Source: Lachnospiraceae bacterium (GTDB lineage Bacteria > Bacillota > Clostridia > Lachnospirales > Lachnospiraceae). From it: 64,000 bases of DNA. The notes beneath the pieces were generated by a model. That model searched no databases and was not told the DNA's origin. It saw nothing but the letters and a program-made list of their open reading frames with translations. The stretch spans positions 1,073 to 65,072 of the forward strand of contig CAVIJY010000002.1 in the NCBI GenBank assembly GCA_963643215.1, written 5' to 3'. Each line of letters opens with the position of its first letter. The first letter of the stretch is position 1. Positions 14,842 through 55,466 of this stretch are shown here, piece by piece. Both the position numbers and the translations under genes were made by a program.

Positions 14842-14985
14842 CATTCGGATTCTCGTGGGGCTTTTGCCCCACTTCATCCTCATTGAGAGGCGTGTCATAA
14901 ACTCTATCTCCCACCGACATGTCCCTAAAGGGACTAGCTGCGCGTCGCAGCATGTCGTGGGAGATGAGTTTTGACACTGTAATCA

Positions 14986-15562: not shown

Positions 15563-15638
15563 AAAAAAACCTCCTTCTGATATAGGAGGGGGATACAGGC
15601 GCAGAAAGCACGCCTTTCGCGCGCTCTGCAGTATCAAT

Positions 15639-15747
15639 GCTTCCTTCCGCCGGCATTATCCGGTTCAAGTTATAAGGGTCAGCCGCGACACGCACCCGGT
15701 ATCAAACCTCCGTGCATACGCCGGCCTTCTCAGCATCTGCTCCCCCA
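15639..15747 (-). promoter_or_regulatory. TPP (THI-box) riboswitch
   Basis: Minus strand reads GGGGGAGC..GCTGAGA..ACCCTTATAACTTGAACCGGATAATGCCGGCGGAAGGAAGC, which matches the THI-box core. Downstream, CCCTCCT could sequester the AGGAGG Shine-Dalgarno. Confidence 0.88.
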
Positions 15748-15825
15748 GCAATTTGGACACTTACAGTATATACAAAAAGCCTGTTAAAGCAACAGTGATT
15801 TCTTTCTTCTGCATCAACAGGTCTT

Positions 15826-17415: not shown

Positions 17416-17523
17416 CCGATTAAATCCGTGACTCAACCTGTAGCTCACACTCCCTTGTAAAGTCAGACACTTGCTACACTATAACACAGCGGACACACCG
17501 TGTCAGTGTGTCCGCGTATTTTT

Positions 17524-17609
17524 ACGCGAAGCAATGAGTCAAAGTCTGAGCTTGCTCAAGACCTTGATGAATGCCGCGATAGCGAGGGAACACGCGAAGC
17601 GTGTTCCCG
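17524..17609 (+). repeat. Intergenic repeat, family 2, copy a (opposite orientation to the other two)
   Basis: ACGCGAAGCAATGAGTCAAAGTCTGAGCTTGCTCAAGACCTTGATGAATGCCGCGATAGCGAGG plus hairpin GGGAACACGCGAAGCGTGTTCCC. It is preceded by a hairpin (17491-17513) and a T run. Confidence 0.75.
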
Positions 17610-17612
17610 AGA

Positions 17613-29600: not shown

Positions 29601-30400
29601 ATCCTGTCATCCTTGGATTCAGTCTGTTTTTTTGCGGACTCGTCCGCCTCAAGAGCCGCCAGCCGGGCCTGAGCCTGGGCAAGCTGTCTCTTCAGCCTCT
29701 CGGCCTCTGCCGCAGCATCCTCGCGGTTCTGCGCTCCTTCAGCAGACGCTCCCGCGTTAATCTGCGCCGCTGTACCTTTATCACTGTCCGGCTGCTCTGT
29801 TCGTACATTCTGTGCCGCCTGCGCCGCGGCCTGCGCTGTTTCTATGGCCACAGCCTTCTTCAGCTGGATGCTGACCATGATCAGGTGATATACCTGATAT
29901 ATGAAGAAGATCAGCATCGGCAGAACTATCACCACCAGAAATCCCGTCGAGCTTGACAGAAAGTCGAGCACCTTGCCGAGTCCCTTGACTCTTCCCGTGT
30001 ATTTTCCGACGATATCTCCGTCCGAGATGATATGAGTATCGCTTATCTGGTTGTTATCACCCTTTGTCACATAGGATCTGTATCCGCCGCTCTCGCTTAT
30101 CTCTACGATACGGTGAGTGTTCAGCGCGTACTGATTCAGAATGATGGTATGGAAGGTTATGATATCGCCCTCCTTCAATGTCGCGGGATCAACCTTTTTT
30201 ATGATGATCAGATCTCCCGCATCAAAGGTCGGGGACATTGATTCAGTCTGAACGGACAGCGGAGTATATCCGAACAGGTTGCTTACATTGTTCACGTCTC
30301 TGGTTGCAAGTGTGGTGAAGGTAAAAAGTGCCGCGAGCAGGATGACAGCCCATAACACAACGCTTGCAAGCACCGTCGCAACCTTCTTCAAGACTTCCAT
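29597..30400 (-). CDS. sipW: Signal peptidase I, SipW/archaeal type (copy 1) with C-terminal TM and ~90-aa charged tail
   Basis: Catalytic box VQTESMSP and second box HRIVE. A C-terminal TM is followed by the coiled tail AERLKRQLAQAQARLAALE. Confidence 0.85.
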   Translation of the reverse strand: MEVLKKVATVLASVVLWAVILLAALFTFTTLATRDVNNVSNLFGYTPLSVQTESMSPTFDAGDLIIIKKVDPATLKEGDIITFHTIILNQYALNTHRIVEISESGGYRSYVTKGDNNQISDTHIISDGDIVGKYTGRVKGLGKVLDFLSSSTGFLVVIVLPMLIFFIYQVYHLIMVSIQLKKAVAIETAQAAAQAAQNVRTEQPDSDKGTAAQINAGASAEGAQNREDAAAEAERLKRQLAQAQARLAALEADESAKKQTESKDDRI

Positions 30401-36521: not shown

Positions 36522-38828
36522 TCATCTCTCGCATACTCTGGCAAAGAGATATCCCAGGCTTCCCATCTCTTCCTTTGTGAGTATCCGATGATTTTTCTCC
36601 ATCTCCCGCCTGATGGCTACCATGATCTCCAAGAGTCCGATGGGCACACCCTGAGCAGCTGCCAGATAAGCAGCCGTGAGCGCCACATTTTTGATGATGG
36701 CTCCGGTGAATTTAAATATCCTTGCCAGCTCACGATAGTCAACCTCCGAGGCAACCGGCGCCTGCTTCGGGAACACACTGCTCCATATCTCATAGCGGAT
36801 CTGCTCATCAGGCTCCTTGAACAGGAGATAATATCTGAATCTTCTCAGGAACGCATTATCTATGGATGTCATGTTGTTTGTCGCAAGTATCGATATCCCG
36901 TCGAATTCCTCTATGCATTGCAGCAGCAAAGAGGACTCTATATTGGCAAAACGCTCATTGGCATCCTTTGCATCCATACGCTTGTTGAATATGGAATCGG
37001 CCTCGTCAAAGAAAAGCACGCTGTTGCTCTTTTTTGCCTGATCAAATATCCTTCTGATATTCTTCTCCGTCTCTCCGACATATTTGTCTATAAGCTGAGA
37101 AAGATCTATCTTGTAAAGCTCCATCCCGAGCTCATTGGCCACGACCTGCGCAGCCATGGTCTTTCCGGTTCCGGGAGGACCTGCAAAAAGCACGGTTACC
37201 CCTGAGCCGTACGGAACCTTGCTCTCGAAATTCCACTCCTGCATGACGATATGACGGTTTCTTACAGTATCGCACACATCCCTCAGCAGCGTCTTATCTC
37301 TGGGATCCATCTTGATATCATCCCATTTAAACGGCGACTCAACCTTCTGTGTATGATCCTTGAGCGGATGCCCCATGACCGCATAGCAGCTTTTATAAAG
37401 CATCCCTCGTGATACATCCTCATGCAGAAATGCCTGTCTTGCCGCCCGGTTTATCTGTCCCGGCGTCAGTGTGAAGCTGTTGGCCAGCTGCTGTATCTCT
37501 CCCTCGGAAAGAGCAAGGCTCCTGTCGCCGCTATAGCCTCGAAGATAGTATGTCCATATCCTCGCTCTTGTGACGGCATCCGGCATCTTCACTGCAAAAA
37601 GATATACACCCTCGATGTAGTCCGGCACTGTCTCCGCCTCAATCAGCATACATACCGGAACATTCACAGATCCGGCTTTTCCTGTCAGCCAGCTTATATA
37701 CAGCTTCTGCCGATCCGCAGAGTAGCCTCCCAGCCCGGATATGACCAGCATCCTGTCTGTCACTATACACTCGCGCACCGCATACAGTGTATGATCCATC
37801 AGCACAGAGATGTCTCCGGCTGCATTTGCCTCATTCAGACACTCTCCCGCATCGTACTCTATCGCACGCATACCGGTGTCTGCCAATGCTCCTGCCGCTA
37901 TAGTGTGCTTTCCCGCTCCGCGCGCTCCCCAGAGGACAATCGGAGCTGAGTATGACCTGAGACGGCGGGCGAGACTCTCCCTGTCATCCCTCATATAAGC
38001 ATACGGAGAATCCTGCGCGGAATCGTCCTCGGACGCCGCGCCGCTCAACATATGCATACCGTACAGCAGATTCAGAGAAGCCTGAGCCGCATCCGGTATA
38101 CGTCCATATGTAAGTCCTGTCGGAAATCCTGCCGCAGAAGCACTTGCCGCAAAGCCGTTGGCCTCATCCGTCATCAGCTCGTACAGCCGCATGTCAAGCT
38201 GCGGTGTCAAGTGGAATATATCCTCTGCTCCGTCGCACTCCGGGAAGAGATATCCGAGAGAATCAGCGACCTCACTCAGCATTCTGCTCACGCGGGCTCC
38301 GCCGTAAAGCCCGTCTCCGAACAGGAGATTTACCACATCATACAGACTTTTCGCCCCCACCATCGATGCATAGTCTCTGTCCAGATATACATGATAGTAG
38401 TAAATCAATGTCTCCGTCATCCAGTCCGGAAGCAACAGCCTTTCAAGCAGTATATTCAGCGCCGGGATCTTTCCTGCCGTCACGCTGACATCCCGGCGCG
38501 CGATGATCTGGTCGGCCCACAGCTGCGCGGTCTGACCCTCTGACAGCCCCCGCATGATCAGTCTTGTGCGCAGGTATTCAATTGCTCTCACACATCGTGA
38601 CAGCTCTGTTGATTCCGGTCCCGACAGCACAGTCTCTCCCACTGCAGCATCACTCGCTGTAGCATCGCGCGGCTCAAGCATCTGCAAACCACTCTTTTCC
38701 AGAAGGCTCTGCCGCTCCTGCATGATTTCAAGTATTCTCAGGTCAACGAAAACAGACAGCTCCTCGACATATTCAAAGCTGTCTGTATATGGTCTGTCTC
38801 CTGCAAATCGTACCAACGGATCATTCAT
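36522..38828 (-). CDS. Two-domain AAA+ ATPase (degenerate D1, canonical classic-clade D2)
   Basis: D1 is LWGARGAGKHT. D2 has GPPGTGKTMAAQVVANELG, Walker B VLFFDEADSIF and ILATNN..DNAFLRRF. Confidence 0.8.
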   Translation of the reverse strand: MNDPLVRFAGDRPYTDSFEYVEELSVFVDLRILEIMQERQSLLEKSGLQMLEPRDATASDAAVGETVLSGPESTELSRCVRAIEYLRTRLIMRGLSEGQTAQLWADQIIARRDVSVTAGKIPALNILLERLLLPDWMTETLIYYYHVYLDRDYASMVGAKSLYDVVNLLFGDGLYGGARVSRMLSEVADSLGYLFPECDGAEDIFHLTPQLDMRLYELMTDEANGFAASASAAGFPTGLTYGRIPDAAQASLNLLYGMHMLSGAASEDDSAQDSPYAYMRDDRESLARRLRSYSAPIVLWGARGAGKHTIAAGALADTGMRAIEYDAGECLNEANAAGDISVLMDHTLYAVRECIVTDRMLVISGLGGYSADRQKLYISWLTGKAGSVNVPVCMLIEAETVPDYIEGVYLFAVKMPDAVTRARIWTYYLRGYSGDRSLALSEGEIQQLANSFTLTPGQINRAARQAFLHEDVSRGMLYKSCYAVMGHPLKDHTQKVESPFKWDDIKMDPRDKTLLRDVCDTVRNRHIVMQEWNFESKVPYGSGVTVLFAGPPGTGKTMAAQVVANELGMELYKIDLSQLIDKYVGETEKNIRRIFDQAKKSNSVLFFDEADSIFNKRMDAKDANERFANIESSLLLQCIEEFDGISILATNNMTSIDNAFLRRFRYYLLFKEPDEQIRYEIWSSVFPKQAPVASEVDYRELARIFKFTGAIIKNVALTAAYLAAAQGVPIGLLEIMVAIRREMEKNHRILTKEEMGSLGYLFARVCER

Positions 38829-38997: not shown

Positions 38998-41900
38998 TCA
39001 GCTCGTCCCCGCGGGAATCTCTATCTTGGAATCGGATGCGATCTTCGTATCGTTGACCTTTACCTCGACATTCACATCGCTGCTCAGCTTAAAGCCGTCA
39101 AGTATGATTGCTTCGCTAGAGGATGTAACCGTGATCTCATCTCTGGATGCCACAGACTTCGGATCGGTATCTGATGCTTTCTCGTAGTTGTATGCGAACA
39201 GCGGCACTATGTCAACCGTCGTGTCTGTAGTCGTCTGATAACTGTAGGACACCACAAACTCATCCTCCAGCTTCGCTGTATATGCCGTACCCTCCGGAAT
39301 ATCTGAAAAGGCTTCGCCGGTATTCAGCGCTTGGATATTCCTGATAACCGTAGCCTGCGTCCAGTCATCATCTATGCCCCATACTCCGTCAGCAGGCTTC
39401 TCTACCTCATCGGTCTGAGTAATCGTGGTATCCGCTGTTTTGTTGTATTCCGTGATCGTACGGAAGAACCTTTCGGAGCTGTCCGTCGAAGCAGTCATCT
39501 GCGTGTCCGCGTTCATGACAGTTACATCCGCCGCCTTATATACACAGGCGGCACCGGCTACAGCGGCTCCGGATCCTGCTGCTTCAGACTCAAATGTGAC
39601 CGTGATTTTATCTGATGATGTCACCGCGGAAGCTGCCGCGCTGTTCTTAAATTCTAGCGCTACGGCAGCGTCCTTTACCGCCGCGAAGCCTACACCGTCG
39701 GGGCATCTGCCTGTGTCTGATGTCACTGTCTCCATAGTCTCTGTTCGTGTGATCTCCTGCATGCCGGTGTTCGGATTGGAGCAGATATCAAGATAGAACA
39801 GATAGGCCCCGATACCTGATGCCGAGCCAAGTGCGTACTCTCCCCTGTTGACAGGGATCTGAAAGTAATACACCGCAGACTGAATGAGATTCTCCGTAGC
39901 AGTGATCCATGCTGTATCAAATACAAGATTTGCATCAGTTACACATGCCGGAGCATCTGATGCAGGTGTATCATACTCGCCGCCGCTGTATGAAGAATAT
40001 GTCCCATCCGCATATTCATATACATAGCTGCCCGAATCCTTGTATATTCGACTTATCTCCTTGATATCTGTGATTTTGTTCTCATCATCCCTGTAAATAT
40101 GATGCAGCGAGAAGAAGCTTGTGTTATTGCCATAATATGTTCCTGCATAGAACGAGATATATCCCGCCTGATTGAGCATAAAGTCTATGCTGTTGCGCGG
40201 CATCTGATAATTGTCATAACTGATGCCGTTTATCCACGCTGTCGGCATCTCTGCCACATTGGCCTTACTGATAGTCGCCGGCATAAAGTGAAGCCCGTAG
40301 ATGGTTCCCGCATCGGCTTCAAACATATCTGCCAGCTCCTCCCGGGCCGCATCATATACCGTTTTGTTCAGCCCAAGCTCAGTCAGAGTCTTTTTGGTTA
40401 TGCCCGATACATCTGAACTTATATTTGTATTGTTCGCATTCGCACTGTCCGAGATGCGAAACTGTCCATCAGTAGTCTGTGTCAGAATCTCGAGCTGTCC
40501 GTCAGCATATGCGGATAATCCGTTAAGCGATGCCGTAAGCCTCCCGGCCAGGGAATATCCGGCAACACGTATATTTCCCAGAGGATTTGAACCGGCTTCC
40601 GATTTCTGCTCTGCTCCTCCGACAAAATATCCAGTATTTGCATATCCGTCCTCCGTGCTTTCAGTTCGCGTGCTGTATCCGCCGGAGGGATAAGAGCCTG
40701 TGACTGTCTCATTTACAGCAATCGGAAATATGGAATCGTAGGTGGCATAGACTGCGCTTGCGGATTCCGTGATTGTATATTGATAGGTTATCTTTTCATT
40801 CTTTGATGTCTGCGTGCATTCGTAGGCGCTTGTGTCTCCGTCGGCGACCTTGATTATCTGCACCTTTGGAGTGTTTCCCTTGGCATTACTTGTCGTGGAT
40901 TCACTTGTGTCTGTACTGACCTTCCAGATTCTGTACGATACAAAAGAGTTCAAATACCATGTGAAATTCAGATAATATGTTGTTCCGCCTGAGCTGTCCG
41001 GCTTTGTAGCCAGATAGTATATTGAAGGATCTGCAGCGTCGGCAGCCTGCATTTCCCATTGCGTTACCCCGCTGTTTTCAATTTTAAGAGTGCCTGCAGA
41101 GGTATCCACATTCAGATACTTTCTTTCATCATCCGCTGCAATTGACAAGTATCCATCATTGTCGAAATGCCACTGCGCTTTATAGTCAGTGTTTTTCGCG
41201 CCTTTTACAGAGCCGACATACGGAAGTGAGGCTTCGTTGCTTTGTAAATAGCTTTCGATTTTCCATGTATTATCGCAGGAATAGTCACTGTACAGATAGT
41301 GATAATTATTACGAAGATAATATGATTCCTGTATATTTACTACCTGCTCTGCCTGCTCTACCTTCCATTTGCCGTCTGAGGTGTCATAAAACAGATAATA
41401 TGTTCCGCTGTTGTAAACATAGCCTCCGGCTACTGAGGTGCGCGTCCATGCGCTGGCACTTGCATATGCCGTTTCAATCTTAAGCGACAGATCGCTGTCT
41501 ATAGTTAGAAAATATGTAGTGCTGCCCGACTTAGTGATCAGATAGCTGCTTCCCCCGGTGACATGATCATGACTCACATATGACCACAGCGTTGCATCGT
41601 CTTCGCTGTCTGCGGCTACTATACTTGTACCGCTGAGTGTGAGGTATTTACCGTTTTGCTGTATGGTAAATGTCTCGCAATTCTTTGTGGTGTATGTCGT
41701 CGTCCTGGTCATGGTTTCTGAACCTGTCGGCTGGGTGATATTGTCAGCTCCATGAAGAGCTGCATATGTGCCTGAAGAGTTGGATGAAAAGCTATAGGAA
41801 GCCCAATCATCGCTGAAATTTTTGAACGCAGCGTTCGAAACGGACACCTTTCCCGAATACTCAATCTCTCCGTCCAGAGAAAACGCTGCATTCGGGTTTG

Positions 41901-43005
41901 ATCTTGTATAGTTCGCGGTCACACCGGTATACACCGGAGCGTCTGATGTCTTGCCGCTGCCGTAGACATTCTTCAGTCTCTGAAACAGAGACTTCATGTC
42001 GATGGTTCCGCCGAATTCGCTGTCTGCCTCTCTTACCTCAAAATCCGCCGATTTGACGCACACGCTGTGCGCCACACCAACGATCTTGGAGGTGTCGCAA
42101 TATCCTACTGTGGTATAGTACGACAGCTTCTCTGTGGGTATCATATCATCAGCCGATGTGCCCACATCGACTCCCGCGGATGCTGCCGAGCCGTCTATGC
42201 TGCCGTTCACCAGTACATCTGCCATGCCTGCGCTGCCACCGACATAGCCCGCGGCCAGTCCGGCAAGACAGCGCTGTGTTTTGCCTACTACCGATATATT
42301 GTCTATCTTCACATTTTCTATCGATGCGATCACGCTGCTGCTTACAGCGCTCCCGCTGTACTCGCCGACCACTCCGAACAGTCCTATGATCTCGGCCTCT
42401 TCTCCCAGATCCGTCGCGCCGTCCTTGGCCAGCTCCTCCTTGACCTGCAGCGGCATCTCCGAATCCTTGCCCGATCCGGCCTCCATATCTGTTCCGTCAG
42501 CTCTGTTGCTTATCGTCAGATTGCTGATTGTATAGCCGTTGCCGTCAAAGCTGCCCACAAAGGGATACTCCTTTGTTCCTATGGGCGGGAGCACCCAGCC
42601 CGTCATATCAAGATCCGCCGAAAGATAGAAATAAAACGGCGGCTCATCGGAATCGTTAAAGTAACCCAGATACTGCAGCCATGCCAGATTGTAGAGCTGT
42701 TCAGGCGTCTTGATCTCGTATGCCGCCGGAGTATCAACAGCCTTGTGCTCCTCATCAGTATATGATGTGCCGTCAGCCTTTTTGCCGAATACAGGGGATC
42801 CGTCAGCATCATAACCTGTGACGATCTCATCCGGCTGTGATCCGTCTCCTGATTCGAAATATCTGGCCACATATGTTACCGATCCGGCCAGCTCTATATC
42901 CGCCTTGTGAATCTCGCCGTACCACGCAAAAGAGGCGCCGGTTATAGCAACCAGCGCCAGTATGATGCATATCTGTGAGCATATACGCCGCATCATGTAC
43001 TTCAT
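38998..43005 (-). CDS. Giant secreted protein (1335 aa) with SipW-type signal and GLUG/beta-helix-like N-terminal module; putative adhesin
   Basis: Signal ...ITGASFAWYGEI. FDGNGYTISNLTISN and IGLFGVVG/LAGLAAGYV motifs are present. The centre is rich in Y/S/T/G repeats. Confidence 0.7.
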   Translation of the reverse strand: MKYMMRRICSQICIILALVAITGASFAWYGEIHKADIELAGSVTYVARYFESGDGSQPDEIVTGYDADGSPVFGKKADGTSYTDEEHKAVDTPAAYEIKTPEQLYNLAWLQYLGYFNDSDEPPFYFYLSADLDMTGWVLPPIGTKEYPFVGSFDGNGYTISNLTISNRADGTDMEAGSGKDSEMPLQVKEELAKDGATDLGEEAEIIGLFGVVGEYSGSAVSSSVIASIENVKIDNISVVGKTQRCLAGLAAGYVGGSAGMADVLVNGSIDGSAASAGVDVGTSADDMIPTEKLSYYTTVGYCDTSKIVGVAHSVCVKSADFEVREADSEFGGTIDMKSLFQRLKNVYGSGKTSDAPVYTGVTANYTRSNPNAAFSLDGEIEYSGKVSVSNAAFKNFSDDWASYSFSSNSSGTYAALHGADNITQPTGSETMTRTTTYTTKNCETFTIQQNGKYLTLSGTSIVAADSEDDATLWSYVSHDHVTGGSSYLITKSGSTTYFLTIDSDLSLKIETAYASASAWTRTSVAGGYVYNSGTYYLFYDTSDGKWKVEQAEQVVNIQESYYLRNNYHYLYSDYSCDNTWKIESYLQSNEASLPYVGSVKGAKNTDYKAQWHFDNDGYLSIAADDERKYLNVDTSAGTLKIENSGVTQWEMQAADAADPSIYYLATKPDSSGGTTYYLNFTWYLNSFVSYRIWKVSTDTSESTTSNAKGNTPKVQIIKVADGDTSAYECTQTSKNEKITYQYTITESASAVYATYDSIFPIAVNETVTGSYPSGGYSTRTESTEDGYANTGYFVGGAEQKSEAGSNPLGNIRVAGYSLAGRLTASLNGLSAYADGQLEILTQTTDGQFRISDSANANNTNISSDVSGITKKTLTELGLNKTVYDAAREELADMFEADAGTIYGLHFMPATISKANVAEMPTAWINGISYDNYQMPRNSIDFMLNQAGYISFYAGTYYGNNTSFFSLHHIYRDDENKITDIKEISRIYKDSGSYVYEYADGTYSSYSGGEYDTPASDAPACVTDANLVFDTAWITATENLIQSAVYYFQIPVNRGEYALGSASGIGAYLFYLDICSNPNTGMQEITRTETMETVTSDTGRCPDGVGFAAVKDAAVALEFKNSAAASAVTSSDKITVTFESEAAGSGAAVAGAACVYKAADVTVMNADTQMTASTDSSERFFRTITEYNKTADTTITQTDEVEKPADGVWGIDDDWTQATVIRNIQALNTGEAFSDIPEGTAYTAKLEDEFVVSYSYQTTTDTTVDIVPLFAYNYEKASDTDPKSVASRDEITVTSSSEAIILDGFKLSSDVNVEVKVNDTKIASDSKIEIPAGTS

Positions 43006-43080: not shown

Positions 43081-46000
43081 TCATGCGGCCGGAACCTCGA
43101 TGGAGGCTCCTTTGCTCAGCTCAGTATCGTTGATCGTCGCACTGTACGGACTTACTATCTCATCACCTCTGATAGTGATAGCCTTATCCGAGGCAGCTCT
43201 GATAGTATATTCCGACAGTTCGCTGCTCTTGTCAATAGGTTCAGCACCCATAGCCGGGTAATCCTCATCCTGTATCGATGATATTCCTCCATTGGTCAGA
43301 AGCGTCGGGTGAGATACTATGCTCACATTTGCGCCGTTTTCATCATAATAATGGTACCTGATGATCGTATCAGCGGCCGCAATATCGTGCCCGTCATCCT
43401 CGAAGTTCGTATCCTGCGTTCCTTCGTCGGCCTCCCAGTCGCTGTAGATATAGCGCTCTGCCGTCCTGGTCACAGCACCGGCATTATCCGTCGACTCCTT
43501 CGTAGTCGTCACAGTAAATGTCGTCTCCTTTGTGGTGCAGTTGTAGGTATAGACCGTAATCTTCTCCGTTTCATCCTTCGATGTTGCAGTCGCTGTCATA
43601 GTCAGCTCGTTGCCGTTTGAATCCTCCAGCACGATGCCGTCCCCGACAAATGCTCCTGTCCCTATACCCGTGCTGCTGACCGTAAGCACAGCCCTGTCGC
43701 CGCTCCTGCTGATAGAGGCGCTCGCTACCGAGCCTGCGGCCATGACCGCGCATGCCGAGTCTGAATCCGATGTATATCCGCTGCCCGCTGCCACAAGCTG
43801 TACTCCCTTTGGATACTCATATGTATCCCTTGTGACAGTCGTGATCTCTGTCAGCTCCTGCTTTCGCAGCTCCTGAGCATTGGTCGAAAGGTCAAGATAC
43901 ATCAGATACCCTCCGCTGCTGCCGCTCACGCTGCCCAGTGCGTACTCGCCCGCATTTGCCGGTATCTCGAAGTAAAAGACACGATTACTGCCGTAGGAGA
44001 TAGCGTCATTATATCCGATCCATTCCATATCAAATACCTTGTCCACTCTCCCGGCAGAGGACGAGTAGGTGCCGTCGCTGTACAGATACACATATACGCC
44101 TGCCTCAGCTGTCGAGTATACCTGGGCTATCTCCTTGATATCCGTGATCTCCTGTGTCGCCTCATCTCTGATTATCTGATGAAGCGTAAAAAAGCTCTTA
44201 TTTCCGGAATAATATTCTCCGGCAAAGAAGTTTATATACCCGGCCTCCCGAAGATTGAAGTCTATGCAATGGCGCGGAACCTTATAGTTTGCATACTCAT
44301 TGCGATCTATGACCGCCTTCGGTATCACAGCCGCATCATCCTTGGCGATGCTCGCGTCCATGAAATGAAGTCCGTATACATACGACTGTCCGCTCAGTGT
44401 CTTTAAAAACGCTGTCTTTGAGTCATCATACTTGACAAAAGTATGGCTTGTCGGAATCGTCTGTATCCCGCTGTCATTTATCGTATAAACGGAGGTAAAG
44501 GCTCCGCTGTTCTTATTGTATGAGGCGGATATATTGCTTATTGTGTAACCGGATACACGGATGTCTCCTGAGCTTCTCGGCCAATAACCGCTGCTCCTGT
44601 AGCTGGATCCCGATACGATATATCCGGTATTGATATCCTTGACAGCATATCCGTTCGCCTGATTTTCAGCCGTCAGCGGCAGGTAGGTGTCCGGTACGGT
44701 TGCAGTGGCGCTCGCTGTGGTTGTGCTCTGCGTAGTGGTCGGCTTTTGAGCAGCTGTTGATATCAGTGACAGTGTCTCCGCCGGCATGTTTGCCGCCTTG
44801 AATGTAAGCACAGCCGCTTCCTCCGCAGGAGCATATGTCGGCTCGATCTCAAAGCTTGCGTCACCTGCAGCAGAGTTCAGACGTCGATTGCTGCTGTATG
44901 ACAGCCCGCTGCTGCCTACGCTCAGAACATAGTAGTAGGTTCTCCCCCAGCCCCCTCCTGAACTTGCAGAGATGTAGTAGTAGGTGGCTCCTGAGTATGT
45001 ATATGCGCTCCATATGCTGTTGGATGTGCTCTGAGAGCCGGTGAGGCTCACATAATAATTTCCCCCGTATGCGTTACTTGCCAGATAAAGATAATACTCC
45101 GTTCCGTTCACATCCGTGCTGATATAGTATCCGCCTGACGCCGCTGTGACACTCCACCATGCGGCGCTGTCAATATCTGTCGTGGTGGAAAAACTGCGAT
45201 TCGATGATACCGTCACATATGTTCCGTATCCGTTTGATATCACATATCCGCTTTTCCCTGCTGCCAGCACCCAGCTCCCGGACGCGTCGTCATATGCTAT
45301 ATAGTACCTTGTTGTAACTCCTCCGGTTGTATAGTCACTGTACAGCCTTCCGTCATCATCTCTCGTCCATGCCGTAGCCGTGGCTGAGGTATAGTCACCT
45401 GATGCGATAAGCGTCCCGCCGTCATTGTACAGATAATAGTCTGCTCCGCCTGCAGATGTGCTGATCACATACTTTCCGTCAGTATTTTCATATACATACC
45501 ACTTCGAGGCGGTTTCGGAATCCGCTGATGCTGTCACCGAGTCTCCCGTCCCGGAGTAGACCATATAGTGCTCTCCGTCCGTGATATAGGAGCGCTTTGC
45601 TGCGGATATCAGCGTCCAGCATTGTGCAGTTTCATCATACTTCAGATAGTAGTCGGTCTCTCCGTCCGTAGTATATATACGATTGCTTTCCCGAATCCAT
45701 GTCACTGCCGAGGTGCTGTCCGCAGTTATAGTCAGCTCTGTGCCGGACCGGCTCAGATAATACACTTCATCGTCTATATATGTCTCCAGCGTGCCGGAAT
45801 CCGCGCCGGAAAAAACCCACTTTGTCGCCGTATCCTCACTGTCCCCGGTTTCAATCCCCGTCACAGTGGCGTTCAGATAGTGTGTCCCGTCAGAGGCGAT
45901 CACTGCGCCCACCTCCTCATGCGAATAGGTGGTATTGATGTATGTTTTGCTGACGGTAAAGTCCGCTGCACCGATCAGATAATTATACATCGTGCTCCAG

Positions 46001-47214
46001 CCGCTTGAGTAATGTGCGGCAAGCGTCGCCGAGCCGGCCTTTTCATCCGTATAATTTCGTATGTACTGCGATATGATCTGAGGATTGCTGTATGCAGTCA
46101 CGCTGGTTCCGTCCGCCTGCGTGACCGTGGTCTCCGTCGCATAGTATGTGGGATTCGTGCCGTTGCTCTCCATATATTCTATACGGTTGTACAGGCTGAG
46201 CATATCAATGGAGCCGCCCCATGCGTCCCCGCTTGCCTGCGCATCCGCTCTGGAGATCATAAGACCCGGCTTCGACATCTCAATCGTCGCTACATCAAGT
46301 GTGTCCTTGTACTCGTCCTCGCAGTAGCCCACCAGCATATAGTCGGACAGCTTGTCTGTCATGCTTTCCGAATCAAGCGCCTCTGCTCCGGTCTCGTTGC
46401 TGATGGTTCCGTCGCTTACCGCAATCTCCGCAAGAGTCCCGTTTACATAGCCTGCGGCCAGACCCGCAAGAGACCTTTGCGTTCTGGTTTCTATGACTAT
46501 CCCGTCGATACGCAGGTTCTTTATCTCTGATATGGCGCCCGAATATGTGGCACCTCCGCTATACTCGCCGACCACTCCGAACAGTCCTATGATCTCGGCC
46601 TCTTCTCCGAGATCTGTCGCGCCGTCCTTGGCCAGCTCCTCCTTGACCTGCAGCGGCATCTCCGAATCCTTGCCCGATCCGGCCTCCATATCTGTTCCGT
46701 CAGCTCTGTTGCTTATCGTCAGATTGCTGATTGTATAGCCGTTGCCGTCAAAGCTGCCAAGAAAGGGATATTCCTTTGTTCCTATGGGCGGAAGCACCCA
46801 GCCCGTCATATTAAGATCGGCCGAAAGATAAAAATAGAACGGCTGCTCATTAAAATACCCCAGATACTGCAGCCATGCCAGATTGTAGAGCTGCTCGGGC
46901 GTCTTGATCTCGTATGCCGCCGCAGTGTCGACAGCCTTGTGCTCCTCATCCGTATATGATGTGCCGTCTGGCTTTTTGCCGAATACAGGGGATCCGTCCG
47001 CATCATAGCCTGTGACGATCTCATCCGGCTGTGATCCGTCGCCCGACTCGAAGTATCTGGCCACATAGGTTACCGATCCGGCCAGATCCACACCGGCCCT
47101 GCGGATCTCTCCGTACCAGGCCAAAGAAGCGCCGGTCGTCACGGCCAGCGCCATCAGCAGGGATATCCCTGTATATATTCGCAATATCTTCTGTCGCATC
47201 CTTTTCTGCATCAT
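43081..47214 (-). CDS. Giant secreted protein (1377 aa), paralogue of 38998-43005
   Basis: The start was trimmed to MMQKRMRQK at 47214 because the upstream ORF extension runs through repeat family 1. Signal ...TTGASLAWYGEI. About 200 N-terminal aa are nearly identical to the neighbour. Confidence 0.7.
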   Translation of the reverse strand: MMQKRMRQKILRIYTGISLLMALAVTTGASLAWYGEIRRAGVDLAGSVTYVARYFESGDGSQPDEIVTGYDADGSPVFGKKPDGTSYTDEEHKAVDTAAAYEIKTPEQLYNLAWLQYLGYFNEQPFYFYLSADLNMTGWVLPPIGTKEYPFLGSFDGNGYTISNLTISNRADGTDMEAGSGKDSEMPLQVKEELAKDGATDLGEEAEIIGLFGVVGEYSGGATYSGAISEIKNLRIDGIVIETRTQRSLAGLAAGYVNGTLAEIAVSDGTISNETGAEALDSESMTDKLSDYMLVGYCEDEYKDTLDVATIEMSKPGLMISRADAQASGDAWGGSIDMLSLYNRIEYMESNGTNPTYYATETTVTQADGTSVTAYSNPQIISQYIRNYTDEKAGSATLAAHYSSGWSTMYNYLIGAADFTVSKTYINTTYSHEEVGAVIASDGTHYLNATVTGIETGDSEDTATKWVFSGADSGTLETYIDDEVYYLSRSGTELTITADSTSAVTWIRESNRIYTTDGETDYYLKYDETAQCWTLISAAKRSYITDGEHYMVYSGTGDSVTASADSETASKWYVYENTDGKYVISTSAGGADYYLYNDGGTLIASGDYTSATATAWTRDDDGRLYSDYTTGGVTTRYYIAYDDASGSWVLAAGKSGYVISNGYGTYVTVSSNRSFSTTTDIDSAAWWSVTAASGGYYISTDVNGTEYYLYLASNAYGGNYYVSLTGSQSTSNSIWSAYTYSGATYYYISASSGGGWGRTYYYVLSVGSSGLSYSSNRRLNSAAGDASFEIEPTYAPAEEAAVLTFKAANMPAETLSLISTAAQKPTTTQSTTTASATATVPDTYLPLTAENQANGYAVKDINTGYIVSGSSYRSSGYWPRSSGDIRVSGYTISNISASYNKNSGAFTSVYTINDSGIQTIPTSHTFVKYDDSKTAFLKTLSGQSYVYGLHFMDASIAKDDAAVIPKAVIDRNEYANYKVPRHCIDFNLREAGYINFFAGEYYSGNKSFFTLHQIIRDEATQEITDIKEIAQVYSTAEAGVYVYLYSDGTYSSSAGRVDKVFDMEWIGYNDAISYGSNRVFYFEIPANAGEYALGSVSGSSGGYLMYLDLSTNAQELRKQELTEITTVTRDTYEYPKGVQLVAAGSGYTSDSDSACAVMAAGSVASASISRSGDRAVLTVSSTGIGTGAFVGDGIVLEDSNGNELTMTATATSKDETEKITVYTYNCTTKETTFTVTTTKESTDNAGAVTRTAERYIYSDWEADEGTQDTNFEDDGHDIAAADTIIRYHYYDENGANVSIVSHPTLLTNGGISSIQDEDYPAMGAEPIDKSSELSEYTIRAASDKAITIRGDEIVSPYSATINDTELSKGASIEVPAA

Positions 47215-47367: not shown

Positions 47368-48288
47368 TCACTCAACCGTGACAGATGTGATGTCGGCATT
47401 AAAGTTCTCGGTTACACGCTGGTTCAGTCGTCCCGACAGAGACTGATAATTGCTGTTCAGATAAACTTCAACCAGAGCCTGTGAGTAGTCAAACTTTATG
47501 AAGAATACCGCTGTAGTGATGCCGTTGTCATATGTGGTGGTATCATAGCCCGAGAAGTTAAATGTCAGGCTGTTTGACTTGGTTGCATCTCCAAGCTCTG
47601 TATATCTTCCGTGCGCCTCAGGAATGGCCGAAAAAAAGCTTTTTAGCTCCGGCGCGCCCTCGCCGCTCCATGTCAGCCCCTTGCAGCCCTTATATACCGT
47701 ATCCGCGTCTGTCTCAGTCTCCAGTGAGGGTATCTGCACAGCCTGAGCCGCAACTACATTAGATAGATTCAGAGCGATATTTCCCTGAGTCCAATGCTTG
47801 TCAGCATCTGTTTTCGTGTATCTCAGTCCCTCATCATCTGTGGCATTCTTCAGATCTCCGGTGTTTTCCCGGTTCAGCGTGACTGTGATATCACCCTTGT
47901 CGGACACCTTCTGACCGGCTATGGTCAGGCGCATGTATACGGCTGTATCCTCGTTCCTTCCGACTACGGCATCATATCCGTTCATGGAGACCTTATCTGG
48001 AGAGCTGATCACAGCTCCGGTCGCTGATATCTTTCCGTCACTGCCGGTTGTCAGCTCACCGTAGTAAAGATTGCACTCGGTGACAGCCAGCTGTGTATCA
48101 TCCGATACTATGGCCGTCTCTCCTCTCTGAGCGATGCGGCCGAAGACCTGCCATGCTCCCGTCAGCGCGGCTGCCATGATCACCACCGACAGCAGCGCCA
48201 GAACAGCCAGTATTGCAGTAACGCCGCCCTTTCCTCCGGGCAGAGAAAAGGGCGGACGCTTTTTATCATTATCCTGTGAACTCTTCAT
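47368..48288 (-). CDS. Secreted/membrane protein with weaker SipW-like signal (LTGAWQVFG)
   Basis: ATG at 48288, 6 nt after GAGGAG. It has a TM/signal but no W-x-EG-x-D C-terminal motif. Confidence 0.5.
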   Translation of the reverse strand: MKSSQDNDKKRPPFSLPGGKGGVTAILAVLALLSVVIMAAALTGAWQVFGRIAQRGETAIVSDDTQLAVTECNLYYGELTTGSDGKISATGAVISSPDKVSMNGYDAVVGRNEDTAVYMRLTIAGQKVSDKGDITVTLNRENTGDLKNATDDEGLRYTKTDADKHWTQGNIALNLSNVVAAQAVQIPSLETETDADTVYKGCKGLTWSGEGAPELKSFFSAIPEAHGRYTELGDATKSNSLTFNFSGYDTTTYDNGITTAVFFIKFDYSQALVEVYLNSNYQSLSGRLNQRVTENFNADITSVTVE

Positions 48289-48299: not shown

Positions 48300-49406
48300 T
48301 CAATCACCGCCGGTTGTCGTCGGAACCACTCCAACATAGCTGACCTTCACGCTCAAGCCGATGTCATCACTGTCAGACATGCCGACCATAGCCGCGCTGT
48401 CGGTACCCTCCAGCCATACATACACCTCGACATCCACTCCTGCTGTAGTCGCGGTGCAGAGCTTTGTGGTGCCTGCCTCATATATATGCTCTGATCCCGA
48501 TGACTTTTTCCCCTCATAGTCGGCCAATCCCGCGTCTCCGACTGTTATCGCAGGACTCTCAAGCTTCCATGTCGCCGAAGAGCCTGCTGTGGTTTCCTCT
48601 ACTATCGCCTTGTAGTTTGTATCTGCATCTCCGTCCGTATTACCGCTTTCGGTCTCCGCTACCGGAGCATATATGAGAAGCACATCCCCGCTTTTAATTC
48701 CTACACGAACCGCCTTTTTAAAGCTGTCCTTGCCGCTTGAGGTGCCGCTGGTATTTAAGGTTACCGTGATCGGAGCGTCCGGATTCAGATATATATCAAG
48801 ATCGCCGCTTTCGGTATACAGATTGTCGCATGTATAGTAGTACGCGGTTCTTTGCTGATTCTCAAAGGCATTCGTATAAACGCCTGATACCCCGGTTGAA
48901 TCAAGCTCGATCCCGCCGCCTGTAGTTATCTTCGTGAAGTCATCCGCCAGCGGCGCGGATATGTCCACCGTGGTGGTTGTGGTTGATCCCGAAGCGTCAA
49001 TAGTATACCCGCCCAGTCTGAAGCTGCTCGCATAGAACCAGTTCGTAAGATCATTGGTCGATATGGGATACAAGGCCGCTTCGATATTTCGTGTCACGCT
49101 TTCTGCATACTTCTTATCCTCATCCGCCTGAGCCTTCTCGCTTGACGGTCTGATATACAGGGACGGCGACGGAGTATCCGAGGTGATAGAGGAGTTGGCG
49201 CTTTCCACCTTTTTGTTGCTGGCAAACCACGCACGCGAAAGAAACGCACCCGTGGACATCCCTGCCACAAGCACGCTCACCATGATGAGCATTATCTGCT
49301 GGTGCATGCGTCTGCGCAACTGCGCGACAGACGGCACGGACTGCCCGTCCCGGACTGCCTCCTGTTCATTATCATATATGCGGTTTTTATCCCTGTTAAA
49401 CAGCAT
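48300..49406 (-). CDS. TasA/camelysin-like secreted protein with SipW-type signal; first gene of the R2 unit
   Basis: Start MLFNRDKN at 49406, after GAGGAA. Signal ...GAFLSRAWFASN. The C-terminus is VYVWLEGTDSAAMVG...LSVKVSYVG. In-frame upstream ATGs inside repeat family 2 cannot be excluded. Confidence 0.6.
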   Translation of the reverse strand: MLFNRDKNRIYDNEQEAVRDGQSVPSVAQLRRRMHQQIMLIMVSVLVAGMSTGAFLSRAWFASNKKVESANSSITSDTPSPSLYIRPSSEKAQADEDKKYAESVTRNIEAALYPISTNDLTNWFYASSFRLGGYTIDASGSTTTTTVDISAPLADDFTKITTGGGIELDSTGVSGVYTNAFENQQRTAYYYTCDNLYTESGDLDIYLNPDAPITVTLNTSGTSSGKDSFKKAVRVGIKSGDVLLIYAPVAETESGNTDGDADTNYKAIVEETTAGSSATWKLESPAITVGDAGLADYEGKKSSGSEHIYEAGTTKLCTATTAGVDVEVYVWLEGTDSAAMVGMSDSDDIGLSVKVSYVGVVPTTTGGD

Positions 49407-49426
49407 AAAATGATTCCTCAAGCTCT

Positions 49427-49544
49427 GACCTTGGCTCATTGCTTCGCGTAACTGCGGAAAACACGCTTTGCGAGTTTTCCTCGTTATCGCGGCGTTCATC
49501 AATGTCCTGAGCAAGCTCGGACCTTGATTCATTGCTTCGCGTAA
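49427..49544 (-). repeat. Intergenic repeat, family 2, copy c (two 25-nt direct repeats flanking a 68-nt core)
   Basis: GACCTTGGCTCATTGCTTCGCGTAA at 49427-49451 and GACCTTGATTCATTGCTTCGCGTAA at 49520-49544. The core contains the hairpin GGAAAACTCGCAAAGCGTGTTTTCC. Confidence 0.8.
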
Positions 49545-49650
49545 AAAAAATCAGCCGCTGCAAATATATATTATCTGCAACTGGCTGACTTATTCAAGTC
49601 CCTTTAGCTTTGCGTCACCGCTTCACAACGGCTTTGCCCCTCTATTTGTG
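49543..49650 (-). promoter_or_regulatory. c-di-GMP-I (GEMM-I) riboswitch R2 with terminator
   Basis: Minus strand reads GAGGGGCAAAGCCGTT-GTGA-AGCGGTGACGCAAAGCTAAAGGGACTT..AAGTCAGCCAGTTGC. The terminator is TCAGCCAGTTGCAGAT..ATTTGCAGCGGCTGA plus T8, and its 5' arm overlaps the aptamer 3' strand. Confidence 0.88.
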
Positions 49651-49657
49651 TATACAC

Positions 49658-49686
49658 AGTTTAACGTCACAACCGACTCTTGTCAA
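49658..49686 (-). promoter_or_regulatory. Sigma-A-type promoter for R2 (TTGACA-17-TAAACT)
   Basis: -35 at 49686-49681 and -10 at 49663-49658. Confidence 0.55.
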
Positions 49687-49699
49687 TTATGTTTTGTTT

Positions 49700-50002
49700 T
49701 TACATCACAGCAGCTCTGTACGGTTCTATTTCCGCAATATCTTTTGCAATACTCGTTTTCAGTGCTCTTATATCAATATCATTTTGCATATCCAGAAAAT
49801 ATCGATCCGATACACCGAAGAATTTAGCCAGTCTCAAGGATGTGTCGGGGGTAATTCTCCTACCGCTGTTCAGGATAGCCTGTATTCTGGATACGGGAAC
49901 ATGAATGCCCTGAGCCAACTTATAGGCCGAAATATTCATCGGCTCCATGAACTCTTCTTTGAGGATTTCACCCATCGCGGGCGCTTTAATATACTCAGTC
50001 AT
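49700..50002 (-). CDS. higA: HigA-family antitoxin (XRE HTH)
   Basis: 100 aa. ISAYKLAQGIHVPVSRIQAILNGRRITPDTSLRLAKFFG is typical of HigA. It lies downstream of higB. Confidence 0.85.
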   Translation of the reverse strand: MTEYIKAPAMGEILKEEFMEPMNISAYKLAQGIHVPVSRIQAILNSGRRITPDTSLRLAKFFGVSDRYFLDMQNDIDIRALKTSIAKDIAEIEPYRAAVM

Positions 50003-50044
50003 GCTTCTCCTCCCCTCCGTTTATCGCAGCATGCCTATGCTCCG

Positions 50045-50329
50045 CTAATGATAATCAACGATTTCGACATGATAGAACTCGTTTCGTCCTTCTATCGAAA
50101 AGCAAATACGATACTGGTCATTGATTCGAATGCTGTATTGTCCTTCCCTGTCGCCATGGAGAGCCTCCAGGCGATTTGCGGGAGGAACTTTCAGATCCTC
50201 CAAGCATCCTGCATTGTCTATCATGATCAACTTTCGCAGCGCCACCCGCTGAATATCATGTGGGAGCTTCTTTGAAAAAATCTGCTGATAGATTTTCTGC
50301 GTCTCCTTGTCATTGAAGCTCTTTATCAT
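50045..50329 (-). CDS. higB: HigB-family (RelE/ParE superfamily) toxin
   Basis: 94 aa. MIKSF.DKETQKIY...LEALHGDREGQYSIRINDQYRICF matches plasmid-maintenance killer HigB. Confidence 0.85.
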   Translation of the reverse strand: MIKSFNDKETQKIYQQIFSKKLPHDIQRVALRKLIMIDNAGCLEDLKVPPANRLEALHGDREGQYSIRINDQYRICFSIEGRNEFYHVEIVDYH

Positions 50330-50511
50330 GCAGCTATATTATACCCGTTTCGCGTGTATTTTCAATGGTGTGTCGCGCAGAATTTTGCATGGAATAAATG
50401 TGTTTCTATCTCATTATTCGTTGTAAAAAATGTGGTTATGCAGCGAAATTTCGTCGCAATTTTTGTGATTATATATTATACTGTGCCTATATCATAAACG
50501 GAGGTGCCCAT

Positions 50512-51810
50512 ATGTACCGTATTGCAATTGAAAAGCTATCAAAATGGAAGGAAAGCAAGCATCGCAAACCTTTGATTATCGAAGGTGCCCGGCAGGTTGG
50601 CAAGACCTGGCTGATGAAAGAATTCGGCAGACAGGCTTATGCCGATACCGTATATATCAATTTTGACTCCAATTCCAGAATGACAGAGCTGTTTGCTTCC
50701 GATCTGGATACGGAGCGGCTGATAATGGGATTAGAGTTATATATCGGACGCAAAATTGATCCTGACAATTCATTGCTGATATTTGATGAAGTGCAGGAAG
50801 TCCCGAGAGCGCTAAGTTCACTCAAATATTTCTACGAGAACGCCCCTCAATATCACATCATGTGTGCAGGATCCCTGCTCGGCATCGCTATGCATCAGGG
50901 CACATCTTTCCCCGTAGGCAAGGTGGATTTTCTAAAGCTGTATCCTCTTTCTTTCAGGGAATTTCTGATGGCCACCGGCAAAGAGCATTACGCAGAATTA
51001 CTTGTTAAACAGGATTTTAAAATGATTACAGGCTTCAAGCAGACATACATCGATGCCTTGAAGCACTATTACTTTGTCGGCGGGATGCCCGAAGCGGTAC
51101 AAATTTTTGTTGAAAGTTGGGATTTTAGTGAGGTTCGCAGAATTCAAAGCGGAATCCTGGCAGCATACGAGCAGGATTTTTCCAAACATGCTCCCAATGA
51201 AATTGTTCCGAGGCTGCGCATGCTGTGGAACAGCATACCCTCGCAGCTGGCAAAAGAAAATAAGAAGTTTATCTATGGTCTTGTTCGTGAGGGTGCCAGA
51301 GCCAAAGATTATGAAACAGCAATCATGTGGCTCAGCGACTGCGGTCTCGTCCACAAGGTAAGCCGCATCAGCGCAGCGGATATCCCTTTGCGGGCACATG
51401 AGGATCTTAAAGCCTTTAAACTGTTTGTGTTGGATGTCGGACTTCTTGGCTGCATGACCGGACTGCGCCAGAGCACTTTGCTTGACGGCAATAGTCTTTT
51501 TGTAGAGTTCAAAGGCGCACTGACAGAACAGTATGTTTATCAGCAGCTCAAAACTGTCGATGGTCTAGAGGTTTATTACTACACCAACGACAGAGGATCC
51601 TGTGAGGTGGACTTTGTCGTTGATACCGGTGAAATGATTATTCCCGTAGAGGTGAAGGCAGAAGTAAACCTGAAAGCCAAGAGTCTGAAAACCTATCGGG
51701 AGAGATTTTCTCCCGAAATTTCCGTTCGCACATCCATGGCGGACTATAAAAAAGAGGACTGGCTCATCAATCTGCCGCTGTATGCTATAGATCAGATTGC
51801 GAATATATAG
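50512..51810 (+). CDS. AAA-domain ATPase with DUF4143 C-terminus
   Basis: Start MYRIAIEKL follows GGAGGTG. Walker A GARQVGKTW and Walker B LLIFDEVQ. The architecture is typical of the widespread AAA_14/DUF4143 family. Confidence 0.8.
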   Translation: MYRIAIEKLSKWKESKHRKPLIIEGARQVGKTWLMKEFGRQAYADTVYINFDSNSRMTELFASDLDTERLIMGLELYIGRKIDPDNSLLIFDEVQEVPRALSSLKYFYENAPQYHIMCAGSLLGIAMHQGTSFPVGKVDFLKLYPLSFREFLMATGKEHYAELLVKQDFKMITGFKQTYIDALKHYYFVGGMPEAVQIFVESWDFSEVRRIQSGILAAYEQDFSKHAPNEIVPRLRMLWNSIPSQLAKENKKFIYGLVREGARAKDYETAIMWLSDCGLVHKVSRISAADIPLRAHEDLKAFKLFVLDVGLLGCMTGLRQSTLLDGNSLFVEFKGALTEQYVYQQLKTVDGLEVYYYTNDRGSCEVDFVVDTGEMIIPVEVKAEVNLKAKSLKTYRERFSPEISVRTSMADYKKEDWLINLPLYAIDQIANI

Positions 51811-54785: not shown

Positions 54786-55466
54786 TCAGAGCTTGTATAC
54801 CTTTCTTGCGTGCTCTACATACAGAGCCATCCGCTCCTTCTCCTCCGGGTCTGCAAAGCGGTACTGGATACCGCACATGAACTTGTACATGCTGCCCTTC
54901 GGAGCCTCCCGCTCCCAGCATACGACTCCGGATATATCGTCAATCCCGGCGCCGTCCGGCTCCGTGCCCACACGCGGCAGACTGCAGTTTATGACCTCGC
55001 CCACCTCGAATCTGCTGCTCATAAAGAGCGCCATACCTCCTGCGGAGATATCCAGCGTGAAGCCCTCGCTCGGCTCTATCACGCCATCCGCATTGACAGG
55101 CCAGGTCTCCGACATATAGCTCATGCGAAGAGATATCCTGTATCGTGTGTCCTGACGCTGCGTGTACTGACGCTGGTTGCTGACCCTGCGTATCTTCCAG
55201 CAGCTTCTGAAGCCCTCCGTGACCGCATCATCGGCAAATCCCGCTATGATCATCTCCTCGGAGCCTGACTCATAGCGGAACAGGAGCTTTTGCATATTGT
55301 CGAACTCGGCTTTTCTGCCGTCGCTCATCGGTACGGTTATCAGAAATGCCGCATCATCCACCTGCTTCACGAAGGTGCATATCATATTGAATTGCGGATC
55401 CTGCCCTGCGGGCATCTCCCTTGCGGCCTGCATTCGCATGCCCGGTTTTATCGTAAGCTCAGCCAT
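54786..55466 (-). CDS. YcgR-like PilZ-domain c-di-GMP receptor
   Basis: RxxxR (QRQDTRYRI) and D-x-S-x-x-G (LDISAGGMAL) PilZ motifs in the C-terminal half, with an N-terminal PilZN-like half. Confidence 0.75.
   Translation of the reverse strand: MAELTIKPGMRMQAAREMPAGQDPQFNMICTFVKQVDDAAFLITVPMSDGRKAEFDNMQKLLFRYESGSEEMIIAGFADDAVTEGFRSCWKIRRVSNQRQYTQRQDTRYRISLRMSYMSETWPVNADGVIEPSEGFTLDISAGGMALFMSSRFEVGEVINCSLPRVGTEPDGAGIDDISGVVCWEREAPKGSMYKFMCGIQYRFADPEEKERMALYVEHARKVYKL

Follow-up and report, generated by a model that had tools for sequence, protein, structure and literature searches.

Three described riboswitches in which an aptamer of the class I cyclic di-GMP (c-di-GMP) type, or its GEMM-I fold, is coupled to an intrinsic terminator offer the closest comparison for the element analyzed here. 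This element, designated R2, lies on the minus strand of a 64,000-nucleotide (nt) stretch of Lachnospiraceae bacterium DNA (assembly GCA_963643215.1, contig CAVIJY010000002.1, positions 1,073 to 65,072), hereafter the window, within which all coordinates are counted. Bc2 of Bacillus thuringiensis, located upstream of the collagen adhesion gene cap, is an ON switch according to in vitro termination and in vivo data (PMC4933901; PMC6366702). The pilM riboswitch of Geobacter metallireducens, which has the GEMM-I fold, is an ON switch with mutually exclusive aptamer and terminator: its transcript is binding-competent at 77–101 nt, the terminator folds from nt 92, and the decision falls at 102 (PMC9262584). 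Cd1 (Cdi-1-3) of Clostridioides difficile, upstream of flgB, is an OFF switch whose aptamer and terminator can form together, in competition with an antiterminator (PMC9262584, PMC6366702).

Like R2, Bc2 comes from a Firmicute and places an intrinsic terminator behind a class I aptamer, and it controls a cell-surface protein; the regulated genes are unrelated, however, and the two are likened by class and logic. With pilM it shares the exclusive folds and a similar geometry (in R2 the aptamer is complete at ~75 nt and the terminator at ~101 nt), but pilM responds to cyclic GMP-AMP (cGAMP), belongs to another phylum and controls pilus genes, whereas R2 has the c-di-GMP-type G20. Cd1, also from Clostridia, shares with R2 the pairing of a class I c-di-GMP aptamer and an intrinsic terminator, yet R2 leaves no room for coexistence, with 12–15 aptamer nt inside its terminator. 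Judged from its sequence and relatives, R2 is probably a class I c-di-GMP riboswitch that acts as a transcriptional ON switch by terminator competition. Class I ON switches that operate by terminator blocking are already known from the Bc2 and pilM type, and R2 is ordinary in this respect.

Aptamer, terminator and the strand they share

Read along the minus strand over 49700 -> 49400, R2 presents a promoter, a leader, an aptamer, a hairpin and a U8 tract. An earlier note, made from the letters of the window, had proposed such a promoter, a GEMM-I aptamer and a terminator with U8, and we found all of them on this strand. Direct reading and a consensus scan placed the -35 hexamer TTGACA at 49681..49686 and the -10 hexamer TAAACT at 49658..49663, separated by a 17-nt spacer, and the combined promoter TTGACA-17-TAAACT matched 10/12 in the scan. 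Judged from spacing alone, transcription would start near 49651, and ~10 nt of leader separate the -10 hexamer from the aptamer. The U8 tract (49543..49550) lies immediately 3' of the terminator stem. A plus-strand open reading frame (ORF, 49610-50275) that crosses R2 was rejected as spurious, as it is antisense to higA/higB and lacks family support.

The aptamer (49573..49648) matched the Rfam c-di-GMP-I family RF01051 over the full model (1-87 of 87) with 56.2 bits and E = 2.7e-8 for the 64-kb window, the curated gathering threshold being 35 bits. Three c-di-GMP-I aptamers in the window reached this threshold: R2, R1 (36474-36395, minus strand, 62.1 bits) and R3 (53330-53253, minus strand, 59.0 bits). 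The c-di-GMP-I-UAU variant came first by E-value in a permissive Rfam search, yet its 52.2 bits fell below its own threshold of 65.9, and the R2 bases G/A/C, rather than U/A/U, also rule out this identity.

Within the aptamer, the P2 hairpin (49632-49617, minus strand) reads GCCGUU-GUGA-AGCGGU with the GNRA loop GUGA, and the P3 helix forms a hairpin at 49609-49579 on the same strand. Alignment to the Rfam consensus identified the bases at the contact positions as G20 (49638), A47 (49611) and C92 (49577), and an interhelical pair between C44 (49614) and G83 (49585); the G20/A47/C92 numbering was carried over to R2 partly by way of the Vc2 sequence. In Vc2, the ligand contacts are G20, A47 and C92 (PMC4744006, PMC5888326). 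Aligning 14 related aptamers (three from the window, eight from loci of homologous genes and three from metagenomes) revealed compensatory changes on both sides at 8 of the 18 pairs of P2 and P3. By family membership R2 is a genuine class I c-di-GMP aptamer, and it would be expected to bind this ligand.

The terminator had been drawn in the earlier note with a 5' arm UCAGCCAGUUGCAGAU (49588-49573) and a 3' arm AUUUGCAGCGGCUGA (49565-49551), both on the minus strand. The arms lie where they had been placed, although the 3x2 internal loop of that drawing gave way, in RNAfold, to one bulge. The RNAfold stem pairs a 17-nt 5' arm (49572..49588, A49582 bulged) with the 3' arm UAUUUGCAGCGGCUGA (49551..49566) around the loop 49571-49567, which amounts to 16 bp with a single bulged A. 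Three extra pairs extend the stem into the U tract, giving 16–19 bp, and the hairpin by itself is worth -24.4 kcal/mol. The segment GUCAGCCAGUUGC (49589-49577), which had been described as common to aptamer and terminator, proved to be the 3' strand of P3 plus C92. Twelve nt of the terminator stem proper (49588-49577) belong to this strand, and the count of aptamer nt inside the terminator rises to 15 when three pairs 5' of 49588 are included.

Since the 5' arm of the terminator is the 3' strand of P3 including C92, the sensor and terminator folds are mutually exclusive, and modelling of the bound and unbound states, which had been suggested as a check, bore this out. The minimum free energy of the 109-nt leader was -37.0 kcal/mol, compared with -22.2 ± 2.7 kcal/mol in 200 dinucleotide shuffles (z = -5.5; 0/200 as good), and the unconstrained optimum consisted of the terminator and P2, without P3. 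When the aptamer was enforced, the energy was -21.1 kcal/mol and the only downstream structure was a 7-bp A/U-rich hairpin, GCAGAUA..UAUUUGC (49560..49578, minus strand). This residual hairpin is not a terminator because 9 nt separate it from the U tract; according to the model, it is likely the nucleation site for terminator invasion.

The other two riboswitches of the window are built differently. Their terminators had been described as lacking obvious overlap with the aptamer, and the counts of shared aptamer nt agree with this: 2 in R1 and 0 in R3, versus 15 in R2. Terminators begin at G91-C93 in R1, R3 and the majority of homologous leaders, with an aptamer overlap of 0–3 nt. Inspection of the R1 and R3 sequences for an antiterminator revealed none. 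Since the deep-overlap design precedes orthologous genes elsewhere, an ON direction is the more likely one for R1 and R3 too.

Orthologous leaders and the genes behind them

The first gene downstream of R2, here called gene 1 (48300..49406, minus strand), allowed the riboswitch to be followed into homologous loci, which are numbered L001 onwards. GEMM-I aptamers lie directly upstream of gene-1 homologues in L003, L004, L007, L009, L010 and L016. The R2 design, with 15 aptamer nt in the terminator arm and its own TTGACA-17-TAAxxT promoter, recurs in L016 (TTGACA-17-TAAAAT; gene-1 protein identity 49%) and in L010b/L138 (TTGACA-17-TAATAT in L010; ~31% identity in L010/L138). In the remaining leaders, as in R1 and R3, the terminator merely abuts C92. 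L010 carries both riboswitches in the same order as in the window, so the two-riboswitch layout looks ancestral.

These leaders also bear on the suggestion that the hairpin and U8 tract mainly terminate the upstream higB-higA toxin-antitoxin operon (50329-49700, minus strand) and overlap the aptamer incidentally. The gene higA ends at 49700, and the stretch from there to the hairpin has no other terminator; L016 and L010, however, show the same overlap in the absence of toxin-antitoxin genes. The higB/higA pair lies between the R3-controlled gene and R2 together with an AAA_14/DUF4143 ATPase gene (50398-51810, plus strand), and this block (49700-51810) looks like an insertion, because the Agathobacter contig L015 lacks R2 and has the two structural genes next to each other, gene 1 standing directly behind the R3-type gene. 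Moreover, any higBA read-through would also be gated by the riboswitch and is thus compatible with an ON switch. We regard an incidental overlap as highly improbable.

To widen the comparison, metagenomes were scanned for aptamers ending in ..GYCAGCCAGUUGCA, which returned 112 unique leaders with full flanks, R2, L010b and L016 among them. The terminator overlapped the aptamer deeply in 33 of these leaders, abutted it in 10 and was separate in 46; the other 23 had no terminator within 90 nt. A few of the deep-overlap calls (L036, L105, L115) are doubtful, leaving ~30, which between them use ~15 different terminator 3' arms. In these arms the base opposite the variable aptamer position Y tracks Y (U-A in 20 leaders, C-G in 6 and U-G in 3), so that the terminator arm co-varies with the aptamer. 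Aptamers of the ..UUGCA subtype were also seen in tandem: three in L039 (4684-5185, ~220 nt apart) and two in L029 (771-897).

The genes behind these leaders differed with the architecture. EAL phosphodiesterase genes followed six deep-overlap leaders and no separate-terminator leader, and the corresponding counts were eight and none for secreted proteins of the gene-1 family (TasA-like) and two and none for UPF0167; one deep-overlap leader preceded a 1159-aa Ig-domain protein. Genes for methyl-accepting chemotaxis proteins were found behind two deep-overlap leaders as opposed to 12 with a separate terminator, and all five genes sampled from the separate-terminator class were chemotaxis receptors by Pfam. 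Physiologically, high c-di-GMP would be expected to induce phosphodiesterases and surface proteins and to repress chemotaxis. The context thus sorts by architecture as physiology expects, which supports an ON direction for the deep-overlap design. The separate-terminator metagenomic leaders in front of chemotaxis receptors, in turn, resemble Cd1.

Another cyclic dinucleotide, for example 3'3'-cGAMP, could in principle be the ligand, with the same fold and the same ON logic. Geobacter riboswitches with the GEMM-I fold, first annotated as c-di-GMP type, sense cGAMP (PMC9262584). Position 20 varies among the aptamers in front of gene-1 homologues, being A in L003 (7847-7925), L004 (7817-7894) and L009 (5322-5399) and U in L007 (7805-7884); as A20 goes with cGAMP sensing in Geobacter, ligand specificity may differ between orthologous leaders. 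R2 itself, however, keeps G20, A47 and C92, the contact set for c-di-GMP, and EAL phosphodiesterase genes lie behind other leaders built in this way. Genes for a PilZ protein (54786-55466, minus strand) and an HD-GYP-like protein (55459-57300, minus strand) lie just upstream of the R2 cluster, and we count them in favour of c-di-GMP. For R2, a different ligand appears improbable.

Energetics and timing of the proposed switch

In the mechanism we propose, transcription would initiate near 49651 at the sigma-70-type promoter, and the aptamer, with P2 and P3 arranged around the G20/A47/C92 pocket, would be complete after ~75 nt. The following 26 nt would supply a strand that can pair with the 3' strand of P3. 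Without ligand, this strand would nucleate at the A/U hairpin, displace P3 and form the 16–19-bp terminator ahead of U8, so that the polymerase would halt. Bound c-di-GMP would instead lock C92 and the base of P3, invasion would be too slow, and the U tract would be transcribed without a terminator. Read-through would then reach gene 1, gene 2, both giant-protein genes and perhaps an AAA+ gene. Counted from the presumed start, the R2 transcript has its full terminator at ~101 nt and the last U of U8 at 109 nt, and at transcript lengths of 75–86 nt the aptamer fold lies within ~1 kcal/mol of the optimum.

Several points weigh against this model. Ensemble energies put the terminator 16.3 kcal/mol below the aptamer, and c-di-GMP at 0.1–10 uM with a dissociation constant of 10 pM–10 nM contributes 1.5–8.5 kcal/mol. 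An equilibrium switch was rejected, as the terminator stays ahead by 16 kcal/mol under any plausible ligand term; because the gap exceeds this term, switching would have to be kinetic and co-transcriptional. This in turn requires that the ligand bind within ~34 nt (~1–2 s), after C92 is made and before U8 is finished. The aptamer also departs from the expected form in places. No closing helix P1 was evident in R2 or its relatives: the flanks of the R2 aptamer show no convincing complementarity, and the A at position 93, where the consensus has C, faces G19. The Rfam RF01051 consensus itself is without P1, and the argument for the mechanism uses P3 and C92 alone. P3 is short in R2, and the 11-nt tetraloop receptor present in the Rfam consensus is missing from it, as it is from P3 in all examined aptamers of the window locus and of the homologous loci L001-L016.

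Comparative data contribute further points of this kind. The nearest relatives of gene 1, in L014 and L015 (68% and 66% identity), have no riboswitch before the gene; compensatory changes in R2 had been hoped for there, and the lack of a riboswitch upstream of gene 1 in both loci indicates that R2 control is dispensable. The two chemotaxis-receptor genes behind deep-overlap leaders go against the sorting of genes by architecture, although both hairpin calls are doubtful and look misclassified. The functional class I riboswitches of C. difficile are all OFF (PMC6366702), so direction cannot be deduced from the class and has to be judged case by case.

Taken at face value, part of this evidence would fit a constitutive attenuator, that is, a real GEMM-I relative that no longer switches, with a terminator that always wins and expression that relies on leakage or other inputs. 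The 16 kcal/mol bias and the narrow decision window are as such an attenuator would have them, as are the absence of P1, the shortened P3, an aptamer score that is the lowest of the three in the window, and close relatives of gene 1 that manage without a riboswitch. Set against this, all conserved aptamer positions of R2 are intact and its score is well over the threshold. The exact design has been kept in distant orthologous leaders and in ~15 independent terminator variants, and the validated ON switch of pilM has a similar window of 77–101 nt (PMC9262584). We therefore consider loss of switching unlikely and an ON switch the probable function of R2. The competition between aptamer and terminator that the earlier note had put forward is supported by the exclusive folds, the conservation in orthologs, the ~15 co-varying designs, the gene context and the described precedents.

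The putatively regulated genes and the surrounding cluster

Between the U8 tract and the ribosome-binding site of gene 1 (GAGGAA, 49419-49414) lies a 128-nt repeat insert (49419..49546, minus strand). It contains two copies of TTACGCGAAGCAATGAG.CAAGGTC (49544-49520 and 49451-49427), and the window holds five copies of TTACGCGAAGCAATGAG.CAA.GTC at three sites: the R2 leader (49546-49419, minus strand), the R1 leader (36366-36156, minus strand) and a plus-strand site (17520-17610) flanked by two minus-strand genes. At each site the T-run of a hairpin resembling a terminator marks the start of the repeat; two of these hairpins are the R1 and R2 terminators. The ~95-nt unit can be written as TTTT-ACGCGAAGCAATGAG.CAA.GTC ... 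GATGAAYGCCGCGATAACGAGGAAAAC..GTTTTCCGCAG, with GCGAAGC mini-hairpin motifs inside, and two sites add a second copy of its first 30 nt. Its fold was moderately better than that of shuffled sequences (z = -2.5). The repeat was absent from orthologous R2 leaders, matched no Rfam family and was found in no viral contig; in 1.06 Mb of fetched loci it occurred only in another assembly of the same organism. A miniature mobile element that targets terminators would be one possible identity, a leader or second regulatory RNA another. The repeat leaves the logic of the riboswitch unaltered, while the longer 5' untranslated region might affect translation or stability.

Gene 1 encodes a secreted, beta-rich protein of 368 aa with a ..RAWFASN.. 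signal-peptide motif. Its start at 49406 was fixed by an identical 368-aa database protein (P0001) and by a conserved aligned N-terminus, and ~100 homologues were found in Lachnospiraceae, Oscillospiraceae and other Clostridia. It is followed on the minus strand by gene 2 (306 aa, 47368..48288; 13-nt overlap with the end of gene 1) and by two giant genes. Gene 3 (~1377 aa, 43081..47214) has an N-terminal ..SLAWY.. signal-like segment, and its paralogue gene 4 (1335 aa, 38998..43005) is ~50% identical to it over the first 570 residues. Next comes gene 5 (768 aa, 36522..38828, minus strand), an AAA+ ATPase (PF00004, E = 2.4e-34).

A search of the minus strand from 49540 to 36522 revealed no convincing terminator. 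At the junction of the giant genes, a weak G+C-rich hairpin GGCGCTGGTT..AACCGGCGCC (42958-42934, minus strand) is followed by the poor U tract TCTTTTG. In the 1335-aa ORF as annotated, this hairpin falls within the first 25 codons, and it may act as an attenuator within the unit or indicate that the true start codon lies further downstream. Gene 5 may or may not be part of the R2 transcription unit: it is separated from the giant gene by a 169-nt gap and is absent from the syntenic L138 cluster. The R1 promoter lies within 11 nt of the AAA+ stop codon and the R1 aptamer begins 47 nt after it. As R1 follows the AAA+ gene, any read-through would meet the R1 terminator.

None of the proteins of genes 1–4 matched Pfam or NCBIfam (for gene 1, none at E <= 0.01), and the gene-1 sequence profile gave nothing significant against the PDB. 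The AlphaFold2 model of gene 1 had a predicted local distance difference test score of 74.5; its best Foldseek E-value against the PDB was 0.011, with none < 0.01, and the TasA fibre 8aur ranked third without significance (E = 0.046, TM 0.19/0.28). The giant proteins had been called adhesins, a label that we found unsupported, since they belong to an unnamed family of at least 879 homologues. These are 900–2300 aa long, come from metagenome-assembled genomes of Clostridia and Bacilli and are all annotated as hypothetical; among the matches listed, only 1 of 120 proteins of the family had a precomputed Pfam domain. The giant proteins also carry repeated ..YYL.. segments.

The label "TasA-like" for gene 1 fared better in part. 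In its favour are the signal-peptide motif, the distant paralogy among the small proteins of the locus and a clustered S26 signal peptidase, whereas no TasA/camelysin profile and no SipW-cognate signal-peptide model matched. The ..AW(F/Y).. motif follows a hydrophobic N-terminal segment in gene 1, in the R3-controlled gene and in gene 3, and distant paralogy connects gene 1 with the R3-controlled gene and four genes of ~270–350 aa downstream of R1. The peptidase (29597-30400, minus strand; PF10502, 24.5 bits vs 22.9) stands at the end of the array and shares 62% identity with the gene that closes the syntenic L138 cluster. An L138 paralogue hit Peptidase_M73 below threshold (E = 0.005, 17.1 bits, threshold 22.5). 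Gene 1 might thus be a TasA/camelysin-type, SipW-dependent matrix protein, a view to which these features lend weak support.

Of the described matrix systems, two come closest: BsaA/SipW from Clostridium perfringens (PMC7395162) and TasA/TapA/SipW from Bacillus subtilis. Both form signal-peptidase-dependent matrix fibres, and the R2 cluster similarly combines paralogous beta-rich secreted proteins with an S26 peptidase. Its proteins of 1000–1400 aa, however, have no counterpart in either system, and riboswitch control, present in the R2 cluster, has not been reported for TasA/TapA/SipW or BsaA/SipW.

The cluster forms part of a co-directional minus-strand array of ~28 kb (29597-57300) that includes R3, R2, R1, the PilZ, HD-GYP-like and AAA+ ATPase genes and the S26 peptidase, along with six paralogous small secreted proteins and the two giant paralogues. 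L138 shows full synteny, and there a single R2-type riboswitch heads all of the cluster as far as the peptidase. The core cluster of L138/L010 stands behind one riboswitch, while here the giant gene is duplicated; relative to these loci, the window cluster has in addition the AAA+ gene, R1 and a 679-aa gene. Elsewhere in the window, Rfam matched a Clostridiales-1 RNA (14795-14985, minus strand, 115 bits) and a thiamine pyrophosphate riboswitch (15625-15756, minus strand) whose 57.2 bits barely exceed the threshold of 54.3.

The design in which the terminator arm is the 3' strand of P3 is frequent in gut and rumen metagenomes, and R2 as such adds little to riboswitch biology. It does suggest a rule by which direction may be read from sequence, with deep overlap going with EAL and secreted-protein genes and a separate terminator with chemotaxis receptors. 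A large cluster of secreted proteins without recognizable domains, found in Lachnospiraceae and related gut bacteria, is probably induced at high c-di-GMP, in the sessile or adherent state. R2 provides a starting hypothesis and an induction handle for the study of these proteins. The unannotated cluster is a more interesting object than the riboswitch itself: it holds five to six paralogous secreted proteins with SipW-type signals, one or two giants of 1000–1400 aa and a dedicated signal peptidase, and in this genome it is split among three GEMM-I riboswitches. We tentatively propose, as a prospect somewhat short of even, that this conserved, R2-headed cluster of gut and rumen Clostridia might specify an extracellular fibre or adhesion apparatus of a new kind, induced by c-di-GMP.

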